This document shows positions 9,699-61,466 of a stretch of DNA of 64,000 bases, in pieces. The stretch lies in NCBI RefSeq assembly GCF_055900595.2, contig NZ_CM148325.1. The stretch is one strand, 5' to 3'. Position 1 is the first letter of the stretch; every line of letters begins with the position of its first letter. Under the pieces are notes generated by a model. It had not been told where the DNA came from and did no database searches. It was given only the letters and a program-made list of their open reading frames with translations. Both the position numbers and the translations under genes were made by a program.

Positions 9699-9702
9699 TG
9701 GA

Positions 9703-10527
9703 ATGATCATCGAAAAAGTCATGAACAATAATTGTGTACAGGCATCGATGAATGGACAGGAGGTTATCATTTCTGGGCCTGGCGTCGGTTACAACAAAAA
9801 ATATGGAATGTCGGTCCCTGAGCATCCGGCTAACCGGATTTTTTATGTCAGAAATGAACAAAAAAATAAACTCTACAAATTGATTGAACATGTGGATATT
9901 GAGTATGTTTTTGTTGCCGAAAAAATAGTGCAATATGCGGAGAACAATCTCGAAAAAAATCTCAATCCATCGCTACTATTGATTCTTGCTGATCATATTT
10001 CGAATGCAATATCCCGAGTCGCTTCAGGCATACAAATTAATAATGTTTTCCTTGATGAAATCAAAGCGTTGTACAAAGCAGAGTATGCGATAAGTCGCGA
10101 TGCATTAACTATCATTAATGAGCAATTCAGCGTTCAACTTCCTGATGATGAGATTGGTTTTATAGCATTGCATATTTTAAATAATTATGAAAATTCAGTT
10201 GATTATGAATCAGTACGGATTATTGAGTTGTCGCAAATAATCACGGGGCTTATTGAAGTTGTTTATAACAGAAAGGTGGACAGAAGTTCATTTAATTATT
10301 CCAGGTTCATGATACACCTTAAATATTTTTCAAGTCGCGTATTATGCAATGAAAAAATAAAACAGAAAGATATTGGTGATCTCTATGAACAGTTTCTTGA
10401 GAAAGACATTCTGTTACAGCGCGCAATTCATGAAATTGAAAGGTATTTGTACGCCACTTTTAAATATGAATTGATTTTGGAAGAAAAACTATATCTCTCT
10501 ATTCGCACCAAAGTATTAATGGACTGA
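9703..10527 (+). CDS. BglG/LicT-family transcriptional antiterminator (CAT RNA-binding domain plus two PRD domains)
   Basis: N-terminus MIIEKVMNNNCVQASMNGQEVIISGPGVGYNKKYG typical of the CAT domain; about 275 aa; start chosen downstream of the terminator, so ORF track start 9646 is rejected; AT-rich. Confidence 0.75.
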   Translation: MIIEKVMNNNCVQASMNGQEVIISGPGVGYNKKYGMSVPEHPANRIFYVRNEQKNKLYKLIEHVDIEYVFVAEKIVQYAENNLEKNLNPSLLLILADHISNAISRVASGIQINNVFLDEIKALYKAEYAISRDALTIINEQFSVQLPDDEIGFIALHILNNYENSVDYESVRIIELSQIITGLIEVVYNRKVDRSSFNYSRFMIHLKYFSSRVLCNEKIKQKDIGDLYEQFLEKDILLQRAIHEIERYLYATFKYELILEEKLYLSIRTKVLMD

Positions 10528-10558
10528 TTATATATAACATTTATATGAGATAACCCGC

Positions 10559-12139
10559 ATGAAACAAAAGAAAGCCTGGAGTTTTTTTCAGAGCCTGGGA
10601 AAGGCATTTATGTATCCCATCGCTCTGCTAAGTGTATGTGGCATGATGTTAGGGCTAGGAAGTGGTTTAGCCAGCGATGATATGGCAAAATTAATTCCAC
10701 TACTGGCTATTCCCGTAATTAAAACCATTCTTGATTTTATTGTTAGCCTTGGTTTGTTTGCCTTTGTCAATTTACCTGTATTGTTTGCGATAGCTATACC
10801 TCTGGGGTTATTAAAAGAGAAAGAGGATAAAGCCTATGGCGCTTTTTCTGGCTTAATTGGTTTCATGGCGATGCATCTGGGAACGAACTTTTATCTTAAA
10901 CAACATGACTTATTGGTCGCTGCTGATCAAATGTCGACACATGGGCAAACCATTATTCTGGGAATCCAGTCCTACAATACCAGTGTGTTGGGTGGGATTA
11001 TAGCAGGATTATTAGTCGCCAGTATGTATAAAAAGATCGTTAACTTACGTATTCCTGAATCATTAGGATTTTATAGTGGCCCACGCCTGGTGCCTATTAT
11101 TACACTGATTGTGATGAGCGGATTTGGTCTGATCATCCCTTTTATCTGGCCGCCATTTTTCAATCTTTTCATGCTCATTGGCCACTGGATTTCAACTTCC
11201 GGTCCTGTTGGCTATTTTTTCTATGCAGTCGCCGAACGCGTGACGATACCTTTTGGTTTAAATCACCTGGTGACGTCAGTTTTCCGCTTTACCCCCATCG
11301 GCGGATCGGCAGTGATCGGCGGAGAAGAGTATTATGGCACCCTGAACATGTTTATGGCGTACGTCAAAGAGAATGCGGTCATTCCGCTGGATTTGGCGGG
11401 GAAAATGGAACAGGGCAAACTGATGATTCAGTATGGTCTGGCTGGTGCCGCGCTGGCGATGTATCGCACTGCTCATGCTCAAAACAGAAAAGCTATCAAA
11501 GCATTGCTTATTTCCGGGGTGCTTACAGTCATTATTGGCGGCGTCAGCGAACCGATTGAGTTTCTGTTCTTATTTGTCAGTCCACTGCTATTTGTCTTCC
11601 ATGCTTTTATGAATGGATTCGCCAACATGGTCTTGCCATATATGGGCGTGAAGATGGGATTTACTGGCGATCTGATTCAATTTATTAGCTTTGGCGTATT
11701 GCGTGGCACAAGAACAGGTTGGCCAATAGCGGTGTGTGTCGAAGTGGCCTATTTCTTTATTTATTACTTTGTGTTCCGTTGGACTATTCTCAAATTTAAC
11801 CTGATGACGGTAGGCCGTGAAGAGTCCAGTCCTGTCACGCTGAACGCTCATGAGGATACGGCTATAGCGGATATCCCACCGCTTGATAAATCAGAGCTGC
11901 AAGCAGCGGAGCAGATGGTTAAGGCACTTGGTGGTAAAGAGAATATTAAATCCCTGGATAATTGCGTAACTCGTTTACGTTTAACAATCGCAGATATGGG
12001 ATTGATTGACGAGGCAGCAATAAAAAGAGCTGGCGGAATTGCGGTTGTTAAACTTGATCAAAATACCCTACAAGTCATTATCGGTACTAAAGTCATCGCC
12101 TTGCGTCGGGATATGGATAACTACATGGGGATATGCTGA
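10559..12139 (+). CDS. PTS glucose-family EIICB component (C-terminal EIIB with CxTRLR phosphocysteine motif)
   Basis: Polytopic membrane protein with GVSEPIEF motif and C-terminal NIKSLDNCVTRLRLT; 526 aa; no EIIA domain. Confidence 0.8.
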   Translation: MKQKKAWSFFQSLGKAFMYPIALLSVCGMMLGLGSGLASDDMAKLIPLLAIPVIKTILDFIVSLGLFAFVNLPVLFAIAIPLGLLKEKEDKAYGAFSGLIGFMAMHLGTNFYLKQHDLLVAADQMSTHGQTIILGIQSYNTSVLGGIIAGLLVASMYKKIVNLRIPESLGFYSGPRLVPIITLIVMSGFGLIIPFIWPPFFNLFMLIGHWISTSGPVGYFFYAVAERVTIPFGLNHLVTSVFRFTPIGGSAVIGGEEYYGTLNMFMAYVKENAVIPLDLAGKMEQGKLMIQYGLAGAALAMYRTAHAQNRKAIKALLISGVLTVIIGGVSEPIEFLFLFVSPLLFVFHAFMNGFANMVLPYMGVKMGFTGDLIQFISFGVLRGTRTGWPIAVCVEVAYFFIYYFVFRWTILKFNLMTVGREESSPVTLNAHEDTAIADIPPLDKSELQAAEQMVKALGGKENIKSLDNCVTRLRLTIADMGLIDEAAIKRAGGIAVVKLDQNTLQVIIGTKVIALRRDMDNYMGIC

Positions 12140-13314
12140 TGGATGTTTTTAATACTCCTATTTCCCGCAAAGGAACATATTGTACCCAATGGGACTTTTG
12201 CGAGGACAGATTTGGTGTAAAAGATGTATTACCATTCTCTATTTCAGATATGGATCTTCCGATACCGGAAGCTATCATCAGGGCATTAAAAAAACGTCTG
12301 GAACACCCGATTTTAGGGTACAGCCGTTGGCAGCATGATGACTATCTGAATGCGATAGTCAATTGGTATCATCAACAATATAAAACTGAAATCAAACCAG
12401 AATGGATCACCTATAGCCCAAGCGTGATGTACTCCATTGCTAAAGCAATAGAGTTATTGACATCGCATGGTGATAATATTCTCGTTTTTACACCTGTCTA
12501 TAATGCATTTTTTGATATAATTAAACATAGTGAGAGAAATATTCTGACAGCCTCTTTGATTATAAAAAATGAGGGGGGCTACGCTATCAATTGGCAAGAT
12601 TTTGATCTTAAGATTCAAAGCGCAAAGATGGTGTTATTATGTAATCCTCATAACCCGACAGGAACCGTCTGGTCGGAAGAAGATCTGCATAAAATCGCTG
12701 CAAGCTGTGCAAGACATAATGTCTGGTTATGTTCAGATGAAATTCACAGTGATTTTGTTTTTAATCGTAGCTTTACATCTGCGCTTAAAATAAAAAAAGA
12801 AAAAGTAGTGGTGTTTAATTCGATATCGAAGACATTTAATGTTCCCGCGCTAACAGGATCGTATATGATTTCAACTGACGATAATTTTAATCATAAGTTC
12901 AGAACGATATCAAGATATCGCGATTTTGTAAACTCCCCATCCGTACTGAATATAATTGCAACTATTATTGCCTATAACGAATGTGAGGGATGGTTAAAGT
13001 CATTAAAGGCACATATTGCCTCTAACATTCAATTCACCCAGCAGTATCTGAACGAAAATACTCCAGAATTGATCGTAAGGCCAGCTGATGGTTGCTATTT
13101 TTCGTGGATAGATTGCTCTGCTATTGGTTATCCATTTGATGAATTCTACAGTCGATTAATTCATGAAGGCAAAGTGGGCATTATGGCGGGGAATGTCTAT
13201 GGAACGGAGGGGGAGGGCTACCTTCGTCTGAACCTGGCCTGCGGTCGAGAAAAATTATATATGGGGCTTACGCGTCTTGCGAGTGTAATTAAAAATATTA
13301 ATCAAGGAAAATAA
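12133..13314 (+). CDS. PLP-dependent aminotransferase class I/II, MalY/PatB-like C-S lyase
   Basis: 393 aa; SISKTF lysine motif; length and organisation after a PTS EIICB resemble malX-malY; overlaps the PTS gene by 7 nt. Confidence 0.7.
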   Translation: MLMDVFNTPISRKGTYCTQWDFCEDRFGVKDVLPFSISDMDLPIPEAIIRALKKRLEHPILGYSRWQHDDYLNAIVNWYHQQYKTEIKPEWITYSPSVMYSIAKAIELLTSHGDNILVFTPVYNAFFDIIKHSERNILTASLIIKNEGGYAINWQDFDLKIQSAKMVLLCNPHNPTGTVWSEEDLHKIAASCARHNVWLCSDEIHSDFVFNRSFTSALKIKKEKVVVFNSISKTFNVPALTGSYMISTDDNFNHKFRTISRYRDFVNSPSVLNIIATIIAYNECEGWLKSLKAHIASNIQFTQQYLNENTPELIVRPADGCYFSWIDCSAIGYPFDEFYSRLIHEGKVGIMAGNVYGTEGEGYLRLNLACGREKLYMGLTRLASVIKNINQGK

Positions 13315-13316
13315 AA

Positions 13317-13913
13317 ATGAACAGCACGGATCTTATCCATCTCATTAAACATTTTATGCGTAACGAACATAAAGCAGTTGAAGAAGTTATTGATTCCCCC
13401 CTTTCGGAGGTTGCAAATTTAATTAAAGTATTACAGTCTTGTCAGGGGAAAGTTGTTTTTATTGGTGTCGGTAAGTCCGGTATTATTGCCCGAAAACTCG
13501 CCGCAACATTTGCCAGCACTGGAACTCCCTCGTTTTTTGTTCACGGTACTGAAGCCGTACACGGCGATCTTGGGATGGTGGCGAAAGATGATGTTGTTAT
13601 TCTTATTTCAAACAGTGGTGAGACGACAGAAATCCTGGCAACACTACCTAGTCTGAAAAAAATGGGTAATTATTTGATCTCCTTTACCCGCAGTCATCGC
13701 TCATCGCTTGCGATAAGTTGTGATTTATCCGTTGAAATTCCCGTAAAAAGTGAGGCGGATAATTTAGGTTTAGCGCCGTCATGCTCATCAACAGTCGTTC
13801 TGGTTGTTGGTGATGCGGTGGCGCTTGCGCTCTCCGAATTGAAAAAGTTTACTCGTGCTGATTTCGGCTTATATCATCCAGGAGGTGCGCTCGGTATTAA
13901 AGCAAACTCATAA
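13317..13913 (+). CDS. SIS-domain sugar-phosphate isomerase, KdsD/GutQ-like (arabinose-5-phosphate isomerase fold) lacking the CBS pair
   Basis: GVGKSGIIARKLAATFASTGTPSFFVHGTEAVHGDLGMV...ISNSGET...GLAPSCSSTVVLVVGDAVALAL closely parallels the KdsD SIS domain; only 198 aa. Confidence 0.7.
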   Translation: MNSTDLIHLIKHFMRNEHKAVEEVIDSPLSEVANLIKVLQSCQGKVVFIGVGKSGIIARKLAATFASTGTPSFFVHGTEAVHGDLGMVAKDDVVILISNSGETTEILATLPSLKKMGNYLISFTRSHRSSLAISCDLSVEIPVKSEADNLGLAPSCSSTVVLVVGDAVALALSELKKFTRADFGLYHPGGALGIKANS

Positions 13914-13974
13914 TTTTAGAATATAAAACAGTAACCGGTCACGCCATCTTTTGGGGTGGCGTTCATTGATGTGA

Positions 13975-14931
13975 GTGTCAGCTATGAAAAACGTTCTGGT
14001 CACCGTTCCCAGCTTTTCAGCGCGTTGTGTTTCTGCCAGCAAGCTGCTAAGAGAAAATCATTTTAACCTTATTATCAAGAATAATGTGGAGCATCTGGTT
14101 AAATCAGAATCCACAGTATTACGAGAATCTATTTGCGCAGTCATTGCCGGAAAAGATTGTTATCAAGCGGATACGTTATCGCGACTACCAGGAGTGAAAA
14201 TAATATCGAGATTCGGGACAGGGATTGATAATATTGATCTTCATACGGCTCGACAATCAGGTATTGTGGTCAATAATGCTGTTGGGATTAATTCAAATGC
14301 AGTCGCGGAATTTATCATTGGTCTTATTTTTGCGAGCATGAGAAATATCCCCGGTAGCTATCATGCGATGCAAAATGGTTATTGGGGCGAGTCGCATGGC
14401 TGCGAGTTACAAGGTAAACGTATTGGCCTGCTTGGCTACGGCAATATTGGCAAAACACTGGCGAAAAGGTTATCTGGTTTTGATGTTGAGCTTTTAGCTT
14501 TTGACAAACAACCCGATTTCCAGGCCGCAGGCAAAGATGGAGTTCAGTTCGTATCAATTGAAGATATCTTTATGCAGTCTCATGTCATCATCGTTCTTTT
14601 GCCATTTTCTCCTGAGCTGGAGAACTTCATTAGTCATAAATATTTGTCGATGATGCGCAATGGTGCTCTTATCATCAACGCCGCAAGGGGAAAGTTGCTG
14701 GATGAGGGGGCTTTACTTCAGGTAATTGAAGAACGAAATGTTTTTGCAGCACTGGATGTGTTTAGCTCTGAACCGCTAGCGCAATTTAGCCCATTGCTAC
14801 ATGCCAGGAATATCATTACAACGCCGCATATTGCGGCCGCCACCGTTGAGTCATACCAGCAAACCGGGATATACGTTGCCAGGTCGATAATAGATTTCTT
14901 TGCAGGAAGGGAGATAAAAAACGTGCTGTGA
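13975..14931 (+). CDS. D-isomer-specific 2-hydroxyacid dehydrogenase (NAD-binding)
   Basis: GLLGYGNIGKTLAKRL Rossmann motif; ...ITTPHIAAAT catalytic His region; 318 aa. Confidence 0.75.
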   Translation: MSAMKNVLVTVPSFSARCVSASKLLRENHFNLIIKNNVEHLVKSESTVLRESICAVIAGKDCYQADTLSRLPGVKIISRFGTGIDNIDLHTARQSGIVVNNAVGINSNAVAEFIIGLIFASMRNIPGSYHAMQNGYWGESHGCELQGKRIGLLGYGNIGKTLAKRLSGFDVELLAFDKQPDFQAAGKDGVQFVSIEDIFMQSHVIIVLLPFSPELENFISHKYLSMMRNGALIINAARGKLLDEGALLQVIEERNVFAALDVFSSEPLAQFSPLLHARNIITTPHIAAATVESYQQTGIYVARSIIDFFAGREIKNVL

Positions 14932-15009: not shown

Positions 15010-15086
<77 letters not shown>

Positions 15087-15119
15087 TCACCGTACTGCTT
15101 TACTTCATCAAATTTTGAT

Positions 15120-15196
<77 letters not shown>

Positions 15197-15229
15197 TCAC
15201 CGTACTGCTTTACTTCATCAAATTTTAAT

Positions 15230-15306
<77 letters not shown>

Positions 15307-19629: not shown

Positions 19630-19835
19630 AAAAAAAAGCACCGCAATTAGGCGGTGCTACATTAATCACTATGGACAGACAGGGTAAATGTACAGGAAGT
19701 GAAAAAAGGTAGCTTTGCTACCATGGTCTGAATCGCAGACCAATTGCAAACACAACAACACAACATCACAACCGTAAGCCAAAAGTTCACCAGAACACGC
19801 ATTCCGATAAAACTTTTCGTTCCGGCTCAGGAAGT
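19630..19835 (-). ncRNA. gcvB: GcvB small regulatory RNA, divergent from gcvA
   Basis: Reverse complement matches the remembered GcvB sequence (ACTTCCTGAGCCGGAACGAAAAGTTTTATCGGAATGCGTGTTCTGG...GCACCGCCTAATTGCGGTGCTTTTTTT) including the G/U-rich region and terminator. Confidence 0.85.
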
Positions 19836-37250: not shown

Positions 37251-37796
37251 GTGGACGATTTGACCGCACAAGCCCTGAAAGATTTTACTGCACGCTACTG
37301 CGATGCGTGGCATGAAGAGCATAAAAGCTGGCCGTTAAGTGAGGAACTGTACGGCGTTCCTTCACCGTGCATTATTTCAACCACCGAAGACGCTGTATAC
37401 TGGCAACCCCAGCCGTTTACCGGTGAACAAAATGTAAACGCGGTTGAACGTGCTTTTGATATTGTGATACAACCCACGGTTCATACTTTTTACACGACCC
37501 AGTTTGCCGGGGATATGCACGCGCAGTTTGGCGATATCAAACTGACATTGCTGCAAACCTGGAGTGAAGACGACTTCCGTCGGGTGCAGGAAAATCTGAT
37601 TGGTCATCTGGTGACTCAGAAAAGGCTAAAACTGCCGCCCACGCTATTTATCGCGACGCTGGAAGAAGAGTTAGAGGTCATCTCGGTGTGTAATCTCTCC
37701 GGTGAAGTGTGCAAAGAGACGCTGGGAACACGTAAACGGACGCATTTAGCCTCAAATCTTGCGGAATTCCTTAATCAACTTAAGCCTCTTCTGTAA
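37251..37796 (+). CDS. syd: SecY-interacting protein Syd
   Basis: 181 aa; conserved position upstream of csrB. Confidence 0.9.
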
Positions 37797-38006
37797 TCCA
37801 AATACCCCATCTTGTTGTGAGAGATCTCTTACAGACTCTGTAGGAGATCGCCAGGAAATAAGCGAATACTTAAAAAGATAAGAATCGTTATTTTCATTTA
37901 AAATCAATATATTGCTTGTTAATTCCTAACTTTCATATGAAATTTTCCTTAAGGCATTGTCTGTAAGCGCCTTGTAAGACTTCGCGAAAAAGACGATTCT
38001 ATCTTC

Positions 38007-38370
38007 GTCGACAGGGAGTCAGACAACGAAGTGAACATCAGGATGATGACACTTCTGCAGGACACACCAGGAGGGTGTTTCAGGGAAAGGCTTCTGGATG
38101 AAGCGAAGAGGATGACGCAGGACGCGTTAAAGGACACCTCCAGGATGGAGAATGAGAACCGGTCAGGATGATTCGGTGGGTCAGGAAGGCCAGGGACACT
38201 TCAGGATGAAGTATCACATCGGGGTGGTGTGAGCAGGAAGCAATAGTTCAGGATGAACGATTGGCCGCAAGGCCAGAGGAAAAGTTGTCAAGGATGAGCA
38301 GGGAGCAACAAAAGTAGCTGGAATGCTGCGAAACGAACCGGGAGCACTGTGAATACAGTGCTCCCTTTTT
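38007..38370 (+). ncRNA. csrB: CsrB regulatory RNA (CsrA-sequestering)
   Basis: Begins gtcgacagggagtcagacaacgaag; more than 15 CAGGA(U/A)G-type GGA motifs; ends with hairpin ccgggagcactgtgaatacagtgctccc plus T run. Confidence 0.85.
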
Positions 38371-38379
38371 GTGCACAGA

Positions 38380-39090
38380 AAACCCCCAGCTAGGCTGGGG
38401 GTTCCGGAAAGCTTTCAGCTTTGAGCCAGTTATTAAAACCCCTTTTGATTTGTTAAAACACCTTGCGGTCTGGCAACTGCAAGTGTCAAACAAGAAATCA
38501 AAAGGGGGTCCCAATGGGGGACGAAAAGAGCTTAGCGCACACCCGCTGGAACTGTAAATATCACATAGTTTTTGCGCCGAAATACCGAAGACTGGCGTTT
38601 TACGGAGAGAAGCGTAGGGCGATAGGCAGTATTTTGAGAAAGCTGTGTGAGTGGAAAAGCGTACGGATTCTGGAAGCAGAGTGCTGCGCAGATCATATCC
38701 ATATGCTTGTGGAAATCCCACCCAAAATGAGCGTATCCGGCTTTATGGGATATCTGAAAGGGAAAAGCAGTCTGATGCTTTACGAGCAGTTTGGGGATTT
38801 GAAATTCAAATACAGAAACAGGGAGTTCTGGTGCCGAGGGTACTATGTCGATACGGTGGGTAAGAACACGGCGAAGATACAGGACTACATAAAGCACCAG
38901 CTTGAAGAGGATAAAATGGGGGAGCAGTTATCGATTCCATATCCGGGCAGCCCGTTTACGGGCCGTAAGTAACGAAGTTGAATGCAAATGTCAGATCGTA
39001 TGCGCCTGTTAGGGCGCGGCTGGTAACAGAGCCTTACAGGCGCATTTGAAAAACCTCCGGCTATGCCGGAGGATATTTATTTTTATTCCT
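38380..39090 (+). mobile_element. IS200-type insertion sequence (IS200/IS605 family), about 0.7 kb
   Basis: Left-end hairpin acccccagctaggctgggggtt, Y1 transposase gene, right-end hairpins (cctgtaaggctc..., cctccggctatgccggagg); boundaries approximate. Confidence 0.7.
38514..38972 (+). CDS. tnpA: IS200 transposase TnpA (HUH/Y1 family)
   Basis: MGDEKSLAHTRWNCKYHIVFAPKYRR...CCADHIHMLVEIPPK...RNREFWCRGYYVDTVG; 152 aa; start trimmed from ORF track (38463). Confidence 0.85.
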   Translation: MGDEKSLAHTRWNCKYHIVFAPKYRRLAFYGEKRRAIGSILRKLCEWKSVRILEAECCADHIHMLVEIPPKMSVSGFMGYLKGKSSLMLYEQFGDLKFKYRNREFWCRGYYVDTVGKNTAKIQDYIKHQLEEDKMGEQLSIPYPGSPFTGRK

Positions 39091-39129
39091 GCTATCCTTC
39101 GCGGCAGTTTTTCTTATTGAGGTTGCTTT

Positions 39130-39459
39130 ATGACCACTCATGACCGCGTTCGTCTCCAGTTGCAGGCGCTTGAAGCATTACTGCGTGAACATCAGCACTG
39201 GCGAAACGATGATCCTCAGCCGCATCAATTTAACAGTACCCAACCGTTCTTTATGGACACCATGGAACCACTGGAGTGGTTGCAATGGGTGCTGATCCCG
39301 CGAATGCACGATTTGTTAGATAATAACCAGCCATTACCGGGCGCTTTTGCTGTTGCACCCTATTATGAAATGGCGCTGGCGACGGACCATCCGCAACGCG
39401 CGCTTATTCTGGCTGAGCTGGAAAAACTGGATGCTCTTTTTGCGGATGATGCGAGCTGA
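39130..39459 (+). CDS. yqcC: DUF446 protein YqcC
   Basis: 109 aa; upstream of truC with overlapping stop/start. Confidence 0.85.
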   Translation: MTTHDRVRLQLQALEALLREHQHWRNDDPQPHQFNSTQPFFMDTMEPLEWLQWVLIPRMHDLLDNNQPLPGAFAVAPYYEMALATDHPQRALILAELEKLDALFADDAS

Positions 39460-40241
39460 TGCTGGAAATAATCTACCAGGATGAATGGCTGGTTGCGGTA
39501 AATAAACCCTCCGGCTGGCTGGTTCACCGCAGCTGGCTGGATCGCGACGAGAAAGTGGTGGTTATGCAAACCGTGCGTGACCAGATTGGTCAGCATGTAT
39601 TTACCGCGCATCGGCTGGATCGACCGACGTCCGGCGTATTGCTGATGGGACTATCCAGCGAGGCCGGACGGCTGCTGGCACAACAGTTTGAACAGCACCA
39701 AATCCAGAAACGTTACCATGCGATTGTGCGCGGCTGGCTGATGGAAGAGGCTGTGCTGGATTATCCGCTGGTGGAAGAACTGGACAAAATCGCTGATAAA
39801 TTCGTCCGCGAAGATAAAGGTCCACAGCCAGCGGTGACACATTATCGCGGTCTGGCGACCGTAGAAATGCCTGTAGCGACCGGACGTTACCCGACTACGC
39901 GCTACGGTCTGGTGGAACTGGAGCCGAAAACAGGACGCAAGCATCAGCTCCGTCGCCATCTTGCCCACTTGCGCCATCCGATTATTGGCGACAGCAAACA
40001 TGGTGATTTACGTCAAAATCGTAGCGGTGCTGAACATTTTGGCCTTCAGCGGTTAATGCTGCATGCCAGTCAGTTGTCATTGACACATCCTTTTACTGGC
40101 GAGCCGTTGACTATTCACGCGGGCCTGGACGGCACCTGGATGCAGGCGTTATCACAATTTGGCTGGCGGGGTCTGCTTCCTGAAAATGAAAGGGTTGAGT
40201 TCAGTGCGCCATCGGGTCAGGATGGAGAGATAAGTTCCTAA
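39459..40241 (+). CDS. truC: tRNA pseudouridine(65) synthase
   Basis: 260 aa RluA family, [12 protein letters not shown] motif. Confidence 0.9.
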
Positions 40242-40258: not shown

Positions 40259-40708
40259 ATGGCGGAAATTGGTATTTTTGTGGGCACAATGTACGGAAAT
40301 TCGCTGTTAGTGGCGGAAGAAGCGGAAGCAATTCTGACCGCGCAGGGCCACAAAGCAACGGTATTTGAAGATCCTGAATTAAGCGACTGGCTGCCCTATC
40401 AGGATAAGTATGTTCTGGTGGTTACGTCCACGACCGGGCAGGGCGACCTTCCTGATAGCATTGTGCCGCTCTTTCAGGGAATTAAAGATACCCTGGGCTT
40501 CCAGCCGAATCTGCGTTATGGCGTGATTGCGCTCGGCGACAGTAGTTATGTGAATTTCTGCAATGGCGGCAAACAGTTCGATGCCTTGTTGCAGGAACAG
40601 AGTGCGCAGCGGATAGGGGAAATGCTGCTGATTGACGCCAGTGATAACCCGGAACCGGAAACGGAATCAAATCCGTGGGTCGAACAGTGGGGCACGCTGT
40701 TGTCCTGA
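40259..40708 (+). CDS. yqcA: Flavodoxin-like protein YqcA
   Basis: 149 aa, [15 protein letters not shown] flavodoxin signature. Confidence 0.9.
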
Positions 40709-60137: not shown

Positions 60138-61466
60138 CTGAGAGATCCCCTCATAATTTCCCCAAAACGTAACCATGTGTGAATAGATTTTGAGTAAGCA
60201 GGGTTGCAGCCACGAGTGAGTCTTCCCTTGTTATTGTGTAGCCAGAATGCCGCAAAACTTCCATGCCTAAGCGAACTGTTGAGAGTACGTTTCGATTTCT
60301 GACTGTGTTAGCCTGGAAGTGCTTGTCCCAACCTTGTTTCTGAGCATGAACGCCCGCAAGCCAACATGTTAGTTGAAGCATCAGGGCGATTAGCAGCATG
60401 ATATCAAAACGCTCTGAGCTGCTCGTTCGGCTATGGCGTAGGCCTAGTCCGTAGGCAGGACTTTTCAAGTCTCGGAAGGTTTCTTCAATCTGCATTCGCT
60501 TCGAATAGATATTAACAAGTTGTTTGGGTGTTCGAATTTCAACAGGTAAGTTAGTTGCTAGAATCCATGGCTCCTTTGCCGACGCTGAGTAGATTTTAGG
60601 TGACGGGTGGTGACAATGAGTCCGTGTCGAGCGCTGATTTTTTCGGCCTTTAGAGCGAGATTTATACAATAGAATTTGGCATGAGATTGGATTGCTTTTA
60701 GTCAGCCTCTTATAGCCTAAAGTCTTTGAGTGACTAGATGACATATCATGTAAGTTGCTGATAGGTTTCCAGTTTTCCGCTCCTAGGTCTGCATATTGTA
60801 CTTTTCCTCTTACTCGACTTAACCAGTACCAACCCAGCTTCTCAACGGATTTATACCATGGCACTTTAAAGCCAGCATCACTGACAATGAGCGGTGTGGT
60901 GTTACTCGGTAGAATGCTCGCAAGGTCGGCTAGAAATTGGTCATGAGCTTTCTTTGAACATTGCTCTGAAAGCGGGAACGCTTTCTCATAAAGAGTAACA
61001 GAACGACCGTGTAGTGCGACTGAAGCTCGCAATACCATAAGCCGTTTTTGCTCACGGATATCAGACCAGTCAACAAGTACAATGGGCATCGTATTGCCCG
61101 AACAGATAAAGCTAGCATGCCAACGGTATACAGCGAGTCGCTCTTTGTGGAGGTGACGATTACCTAACAATCGGTCGATTCGTTTGATGTTATGTTTTGT
61201 TCTCGCTTTGGTTGGCAGGTTACGGCCAAGTTCGGTAAGAGTGAGAGTTTTACAGTCAAGTAAGGCGTGGCAAGCCAACGTTAAGCTGTTGAGTCGTTTT
61301 AAGTGTAATTCGGGGCAGAATTGGTAAAGAGAGTCGTGTAAAATATCGAGTTCGCACATTTTGTTGTCTGATTATTGATTTTTGGCGAAACCATTTGATC
61401 ATATGACAAGATGTGTATCCACCTTAACTTAATGATTTTTACCAAAATCATTAGGGGATTCATCAG
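60138..61466 (-). mobile_element. IS10 (IS4 family), complete 1329 bp copy flanked by 9 bp target site duplication CTTTTTGCC
   Basis: Inside end ctgagagatcccctcataatttccccaaaacg at 60138; outside end (reverse complement ctgatgaatcccctaatgattttggtaaaaatcatt) at 61466; identical 9-mers at 60129-60137 and 61467-61475. Confidence 0.9.
60151..61359 (-). CDS. IS10 transposase
   Basis: 402 aa starting MCELDILHDSLYQFCPELHLKRLNSLTLACHALLDCKTLTLTELGRNLPTKARTKH, full length with no frameshift. Confidence 0.9.
   Translation of the reverse strand: MCELDILHDSLYQFCPELHLKRLNSLTLACHALLDCKTLTLTELGRNLPTKARTKHNIKRIDRLLGNRHLHKERLAVYRWHASFICSGNTMPIVLVDWSDIREQKRLMVLRASVALHGRSVTLYEKAFPLSEQCSKKAHDQFLADLASILPSNTTPLIVSDAGFKVPWYKSVEKLGWYWLSRVRGKVQYADLGAENWKPISNLHDMSSSHSKTLGYKRLTKSNPISCQILLYKSRSKGRKNQRSTRTHCHHPSPKIYSASAKEPWILATNLPVEIRTPKQLVNIYSKRMQIEETFRDLKSPAYGLGLRHSRTSSSERFDIMLLIALMLQLTCWLAGVHAQKQGWDKHFQANTVRNRNVLSTVRLGMEVLRHSGYTITREDSLVAATLLTQNLFTHGYVLGKL

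Follow-up and report, generated by a model that had tools for sequence, protein, structure and literature searches.

The Escherichia coli DNA analysed here (a stretch of 64,000 nucleotides, referred to as the window) carries a mobile element between csrB, the gene of a global regulatory RNA, and the genes yqcC-truC-yqcA. The locus raises the question of what this element is, how it came to lie at the csrB terminator and whether it alters the genes on either side. Based on the comparisons presented below, we propose that a full-length IS200 was, very probably, placed by single-strand transposition into the T-tract of csrB, the kind of target that it usually takes, and that this site has been hit twice independently.

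Results

The element is a complete IS200

The preliminary description of the locus had recognized an IS200-type element of about 710 bp filling nearly the whole csrB-yqcC spacer. This identification is borne out by the agreement of Pfam (Y1_Tnp), Rfam (STnc490), structural relatives in the PDB and the RefSeq label, and the measured length is 711 bp (Table 1). The product of the one open reading frame (152 aa) scores 126.5 bits against Pfam PF01797, for a cutoff of 23; its PDB relatives are IS200-like, IS608 and ISDra2 TnpA (E 2e-23 to 5e-16), and identical DNA is labelled 'IS200/IS605 family transposase' in RefSeq. The family is thus IS200/IS605 and no other, with tnpA present and tnpB absent. 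The HUH motif of TnpA reads HIH (residues 61-63) and the single catalytic tyrosine is Tyr125, the residue altered in the Y125F protein that served as the catalytically dead control in Ellis 2015 (PMC4513863).

The ends were placed independently of the T-run, by comparison with further copies, about 40 of full length from Yersinia pestis and 10 from other E. coli loci. These copies start at the G of GTGC(A/C)CAGAAAACCCCC, finish with ...GGAGGATATTTATT and diverge right after. The two ends of the window copy (GTGCACAG... and ...ATATTTATT) do not match each other in inverted orientation, so that there are no terminal inverted repeats; both ends carry subterminal hairpins. On the left, the hairpin sequence ACCCCCAGCTAGGCTGGGGGTT (38382-38403) occurs once in the window and found matches in 0 of 100 shuffles. 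An 11-nt spacer separates it from the T's of csrB, and its earlier placement about 12 bp past the end of the T-run (38370) was correct. On the right, the hairpin is followed by ATATTTATTTTTATT. The published anatomy of IS200, with a hairpin at nt 12-34 and a stem-loop at nt 69-138 (PMC4513863), agrees within one base, and the predicted folds concur. We therefore regard the element as a full-length, apparently functional IS200 (IS200/IS605 family, IS200 group). A search of the window for further IS200 copies returned none. A degenerate or miniature element was also considered and is ruled out by the intact reading frame and the presence of both ends.

Two observations concern RNAs of the element. 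The Rfam STnc490 match of 146.4 bits, for a gathering score of 56 in RF01405, lies at 38381-38504 on the tnpA-sense strand, whereas STnc490/art200 is antisense to the tnpA 5'UTR (Ellis 2015, PMC4513863); the match locates the region, and the small RNA itself need not come from the strand that is matched. Just 3' of tnpA, the segment 38977-39078 matches the position of StyR-24, which was cloned from Salmonella Typhi as an RNA of about 102 nt with its start 4 nt past the transposase ORF (PMC2943607), and the right end of IS200 may yield a stable RNA of its own.

Table 1. Coordinates of csrB, the IS200 copy and the neighbouring genes in the window
Feature	Position	Strand	Basis
syd, upstream of csrB	37251-37796	+	Pfam Syd
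csrB small RNA gene	38016-38375	+	Rfam RF00018, 373.6 bits, E 3.5e-109, model 1-356 full
csrB intrinsic terminator hairpin (11-bp stem, 4-nt loop)	38340-38365	+	terminator scan
Residual left part of the csrB T-tract, five T's	38366-38370	+	alignment with K-12 and strain B20105; empty-site alleles
Complete IS200, 711 bp, GTGCACAG... to ...GGAGGATATTTATT	38371-39081	+	ends are the divergence points between copies at different loci
IS200 left-end hairpin, AACCCCCAGC-TAG-GCTGGGGGTT	38381-38403	+	motif search and fold
IS200 5' region (tnpA 5'UTR and art200 antisense RNA region)	38381-38504	+	Rfam STnc490 RF01405, 146.4 bits, model 1-124 full
tnpA 5'UTR stem-loop sequestering the ribosome-binding site	38440-38506	+	fold -37 kcal/mol, z = -5.3; corresponds to nt 69-138 in Ellis 2015 (PMC4513863)
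tnpA, intact ORF of a 152-aa Y1/HUH transposase	38514-38972	+	Pfam PF01797 Y1_Tnp 'Transposase IS200 like', E 7.9e-37; RefSeq WP_000502112.1
IS200 right-end hairpin, CCTCCGGC-TAT-GCCGGAGG	39054-39072	+	terminator scan (both strands reported); fold
IS200 right-end tail ATATTTATT, final 9 nt	39073-39081	+	invariant in about 40 Yersinia and 10 E. coli copies
Original csrB-yqcC spacer: remaining TTT, then ATTCC... to the yqcC ATG	39082-39129	+	alignment
Candidate extended -10 for yqcC, TGCTATCCT	39090-39098	+	inferred by reading the sequence; not in the two-hexamer scan
yqcC	39130-39459	+	ORF list; Pfam DUF446, E 1.7e-34; RefSeq
truC	39459-40241	+	ORF list; RefSeq
yqcA	40259-40708	+	ORF list; RefSeq

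The insertion lies within the T-tract of the csrB terminator

The csrB gene has the features of the CsrB/RsmB family, namely a full-length match to RF00018, GGA loops that recur along the RNA and an intrinsic terminator hairpin at the end, and the fold of the RNA from 38336 to 38410 contains the terminator stem (-41.1 kcal/mol, z = -5.8). At its 3' end the Rfam match runs five positions into IS200 (38371-38375). In the RefSeq record NZ_CP098223.1, tnpA, syd and yqcC are annotated and a csrB feature is absent, despite the CsrB match of 373.6 bits, so that the annotation does not reveal that the csrB terminator is disrupted.

In the K-12 derivative DH5alpha the site is empty, and the window has 712 additional bases in the alignment. 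K-12 reads CTCCC-T7-ATTCC, where the window reads CTCCC-T5-GTGCAC...GGATATTTA-T5-ATTCC. With the ends placed as above, IS200 sits after the fifth T, co-oriented with csrB (CTCCC-T5-[IS]-T3-ATTCC), and the three T's 3' of its right end are 39082-39084. The element had been described as lying directly after the terminator, about 40 bp upstream of yqcC. It lies instead inside the T-tract (T5 and T3 around the element, compared with an empty T7 or T8), and although it is indeed upstream of yqcC, the distance is 48 bp, the span 38371-39129 being made up of the IS and a 48-bp spacer. A K-12 spacer of equal size, about 760 bp, was looked for by alignment; the K-12 derivative is empty at this site, and in K-12 the csrB terminator stem is separated from the yqcC ATG by 52 bp only. 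A 1501-base query matched DH5alpha at one place only, corresponding to the flanks. DH5alpha is thus devoid of IS200 at any locus, in line with the absence of the element from K-12 stated in the preliminary description.

The empty alleles are not all of one length: the tract is T7 in K-12 and in the nearest haplotype (strain 2013C-4282), and T8 in strain JNEC-KY203. In strain B20105, which also carries an IS at this site, T6 and T1 add up to T7, equal to the empty allele and without duplication of the target. In the window, T5 and T3 add up to T8, which fits the T8 allele and not the nearest, T7 haplotype, and the homopolymer hides a 1-nt duplication as opposed to slippage; this total requires either a T8 ancestor or a 1-nt slippage.

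The csrB site was occupied on two occasions

Of 5,426 complete E. coli genomes, 2,641 contain IS200-like DNA, and only 11 have an IS between csrB and yqcC. The element is multicopy in these carriers, with 15-17 places matching the 1501-base query in each genome. Eight carriers are 99.9-100% identical to the window, and the other three, namely B20105 and strain 405 (present as two assemblies), are at 97.1%. This smaller group carries the subtype IS200C, with 27 differences from the window copy over 711 positions. Over their 711 positions, the window copy and the copies at ybiJ, yddM and potE in other genomes show no difference (0/711), and the IS200C copy at csrB is likewise identical (0/711) to copies at lom and yfeX in other genomes. 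Near-identical haplotypes with an empty site also exist (99.4%). K-12 and the closest haplotype lack the element at this site, only 11 of 5,426 genomes carry it there, and the copy is identical to copies elsewhere; the IS200 is therefore best read as an insertion and not as ancestral DNA.

The two types of carrier also differ in their junctions (T5|IS|T3 in the window, T6|IS|T1 in B20105) and in their flanks (35 differences over 1801 positions on the left, 104 over 1815 on the right). Since IS subtypes, junctions and flanking haplotypes all differ, the simplest reading is that the csrB site was hit by two independent and recent insertions, one base apart, by two IS200 subtypes.

Terminator tails are the usual target of IS200

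Left junctions were collected by scanning a species-representative genome collection for the IS200 left-end hairpin and taking the 50 bases before the first base of the element. The set consists of the matches listed and is an unbalanced sample, heavy in Yersinia pestis, Vibrio ruber and several metagenome bins; many matches are at contig ends of such bins, and right junctions are few outside Yersinia. The detector evaluated the tail at every stem length and allowed one mismatch. Among the matches listed, which cover many taxa, a terminator-like hairpin with a T-tail was present at 100 of 118 distinct left junctions; in control windows taken at these loci the figure was 21 of 912 (2.3%). The mean folding energy was -18.9 kcal/mol at the junctions versus -9.0 kcal/mol in the controls. 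With a detector restricted to perfect stems, whose A-T and G-T pairs absorbed the T-tail, 75 of 114 junctions were positive. A separate, stricter version demanding a GC-closed stem found a hairpin at most 14 nt away at 117 of 127 junctions (matches listed and E. coli copies together), followed by a tail of mostly 5-10 nt (median 7, 89% T). The dinucleotide right before the element was TT at every junction among the matches listed, except for a single CT.

The same holds for the other E. coli IS200 copies examined, all ten of which adjoin a hairpin and T-run: seven lie 3' of a co-oriented gene (ybiJ, ompX, lom, yfeX, tkt, guaA, carB), two at terminators common to convergent genes (potE, pgi) and one after the right end of another IS200. 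The right end of IS200 has itself the shape of these targets, a hairpin with a 9-nt T-rich tail. The usual target is thus a GC-rich hairpin followed by 5-10 T-rich nucleotides, and the csrB terminator is typical of it. An association of IS200 with terminators is not new in kind. Odaert and colleagues, in 1998, reportedly proposed terminator-like stem-loops as hot spots for IS1541. A recent preprint finds sequences that resemble terminators upstream of insertion sequences, with IS200/IS605 showing this most strongly (10.1101/2025.07.22.666184).

Head-to-tail tandems of IS200/IS1541 (...GGAGGATATTTATT|GTGC...) were also encountered, with the second copy 0 nt after the first in Yersinia pestis NCTC5923 and 1 nt after it in E. 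coli FDAARGOS_1276; either the right end of IS200 acts as a target, as it appears to, or dimers arise in another way. In addition, the exact 21-nt left-end hairpin was seen, most often at the end of a contig, in Vibrio genomes and in bins that bear the labels Bacillota, Peptococcaceae, Mailhella/Desulfovibrio, Oxalobacter, Saccharibacteria and Elusimicrobiaceae. This taxonomic scatter reflects either a very widespread IS200 clade or contaminated bins.

Expected effects on csrB and on yqcC-truC-yqcA

With the insertion, the csrB hairpin is intact and its tail reads U5GUG, compared with U7AUU in the empty allele. As the hairpin and five U's are retained, CsrB transcription should still terminate, perhaps slightly less efficiently. 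In the predicted fold the left-end hairpin of IS200 lies 16 nt downstream of the csrB stem, and any read-through from csrB would meet it there. This hairpin has been reported to act as a bidirectional terminator, blocking incoming transcription (Ellis 2015, PMC4513863) and stopping about 85% of incoming transcripts (Ellis 2017, PMC5435999). At the other end, the right-end hairpin and the rejoined T-run should form a new terminator-like site, on both strands, just 5' of yqcC.

Downstream of IS200 the spacer is the same as in K-12 from ATTCC on, including the yqcC Shine-Dalgarno sequence and the candidate extended -10 (TGCTATCCT). As these 48 bp before yqcC are intact, expression of yqcC-truC-yqcA would be altered only if it depends on transcription through csrB: the IS200 would be polar on yqcC if this gene relied on csrB read-through, and would change nothing if the promoter is in the last 48 bp. 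A consensus scan of 37700-39300 predicted no sigma-70 promoter, with or without the IS200, and a literature search for a published transcription start of yqcC found none. The displacement of a promoter of yqcC-truC-yqcA, suggested in the preliminary description, is therefore unsupported, the 48 bp also being unchanged.

Other features of the window

Three further features of the window were noted. At 61352-61421 (+) Rfam detects RNA-OUT, the IS10 antisense RNA (97.3 bits). Over 56-64 kb the GC content drops to about 0.45, and the right edge probably holds an IS10/Tn10-type element. A low-GC stretch at about 9700-14900 (0.436 over 8-16 kb) adjoins three tRNA-Met genes (15013-15306, -) and maps to a five-gene cluster in NZ_CP098223.1 encoding a PRD-domain protein, a PTS EIIC, a MalY/PatB-family protein, a KpsF/GutQ-family isomerase and a phosphoglycerate dehydrogenase; it may be a strain-variable islet. 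Finally, the GcvB small RNA gene (19630-19835, -; Rfam, 199 bits) adjoins gcvA in the ordinary, K-12-like arrangement.

Discussion

The window copy belongs to a well-described group of elements. The Salmonella enterica IS200, as described by Lam and Roth, Beuzon and Casadesus, and Ellis and Haniford, has the same single tnpA, about 707-711 bp without terminal inverted repeats, the same left-end terminator hairpin (~nt 12-34), the stem-loop at the ribosome-binding site (~nt 69-138), art200/STnc490 and Tyr125. Compared with that published description, the window copy is an E. coli variant, 711 bp long by its divergence points versus the 707 bp quoted. E. coli IS200C (in the NCBI naming) has the same architecture, ends and length of 711 bp and occupies the same csrB terminator in B20105 and 405; it is 96.2% identical to the window copy and was inserted after the sixth T, the window copy after the fifth. 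Yersinia pestis IS1541 has an identical left-end hairpin, the right-end hairpin with ATATTTATT, the same preference for a hairpin and T-run, and tandems, but lives in another host at a far higher copy number. More distantly, IS608 of Helicobacter pylori and ISDra2 of Deinococcus radiodurans encode a homologous Y1/HUH TnpA, have subterminal hairpins and transpose by single-strand peel-and-paste, with a lagging-strand bias and without target duplication. They differ in carrying tnpB and in inserting 3' of a fixed TTAC or TTGAT, whereas IS200 shows only a T-rich tail by a hairpin. An analogous choice of target is seen in bacterial group IIC introns, which home to sites just 3' of such terminator hairpins. 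These are unrelated retroelements, made of a ribozyme and a reverse transcriptase, and their likeness to IS200 is in behaviour only.

The peel-and-paste mechanism is established for IS608 and ISDra2; to our knowledge, IS200 itself has never been reconstituted in vitro. By analogy with these two elements, the Y1/HUH TnpA would excise the top strand of IS200 as a circle, which would then be pasted into a single-stranded target, chiefly the lagging-strand template at a replication fork, without target duplication. The csrB terminator hairpin, extruded in single-stranded DNA, may help to position the insertion. The GC skew of the + strand is positive over the entire window and tnpA is also on the + strand; the top strand of IS200 thus has the sequence of the lagging-strand template, as predicted by the family model, in which the top strand is on this template (PMC5027513).

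The association with terminator tails could also have been shaped after transposition, if IS200 inserts at any short T-rich site and only the copies in harmless terminator tails persist. TT, or once CT, precedes every junction, and a short T-rich motif could be the sole sequence requirement; intergenic terminator tails are harmless, so the association could partly reflect surviving insertions, and the preprint mentioned above sees upstream terminators as aiding IS persistence (10.1101/2025.07.22.666184). We nevertheless consider such an origin unlikely. Placement is tight, mostly 5-10 nt (median 7) past a GC-closed stem at 117 of 127 junctions among the matches listed, the orientation relative to the hairpin and T-run is fixed, and the same csrB T-run received two independent hits 1 nt apart. 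Moreover, selection would equally spare other intergenic T-runs, yet only 2.3% of the controls are positive. Spacing, orientation and the double hit all speak against survivorship alone. Another reading is that the two csrB copies go back to one old insertion, which most E. coli subsequently lost by precise excision or which spread between lineages by recombination, in place of two recent insertions. The IS200/IS605 family does excise precisely, and the divergence of the two IS copies (3.8%) is comparable with that of the flanks (1.9-5.7%). However, each copy shows 0/711 differences from copies of its own subtype at unrelated loci, where an old resident would have drifted, the junctions differ in position (T5 versus T6) and near-identical empty haplotypes (99.4%) are present, which makes common descent extremely improbable.

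It may also be asked whether the insertion is adaptive, having been kept for an altered CsrB 3' end or stability or for an insulated or changed expression of yqcC-truC-yqcA, promoter displacement included. The occupation of the site in two independent lineages, the shortening of the U-tract from 7-8 to 5 or 6 and the two additional hairpins that now stand between csrB and yqcC are all compatible with this explanation. Target preference, however, explains the recurrence, only 11 of 5,426 genomes in two shallow groups carry the element, the 48 bp 5' of yqcC are unchanged and the scan predicts no promoter to the left or right of the junction. We hold an adaptive origin to be distinctly improbable, and favour the placement of a full-length IS200 by single-strand transposition into a target of its usual kind, twice over.

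How the transposase finds such a target invites a more speculative suggestion. It might, conceivably, recognize in single-stranded DNA the terminator shape itself, a GC-rich hairpin with about 5-10 nt of T-rich tail, as a mimic of the right end of IS200 (a hairpin followed by ATATTTATT). If true, this would account for the precise placement, for the tandems 0-1 nt after a right end and for the repeated hits on terminators such as those of csrB, ompX, tkt and guaA. In the csrB copy, the tnpA 5' region, which is processed into a regulatory RNA in Salmonella, could then also receive read-through from the small-RNA promoter, a very strong one.

The IS200 at csrB is an ordinary strain polymorphism, and its tnpA is already annotated in RefSeq genomes. 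What is added here, namely two independent hits on csrB and a general preference for terminator tails, refines the picture of this element and is not a novelty. The insertion serves as a marker for two narrow lineages within E. coli (11 of 5,426 complete genomes), and csrB offers a clean natural example of the terminator-tail preference of IS200, with two hits 1 nt apart on one small-RNA terminator. In carrier strains, the shortened U-tract of a global regulatory RNA and the two added hairpins are relevant to studies of the CsrB 3' end or of yqcC-truC-yqcA.
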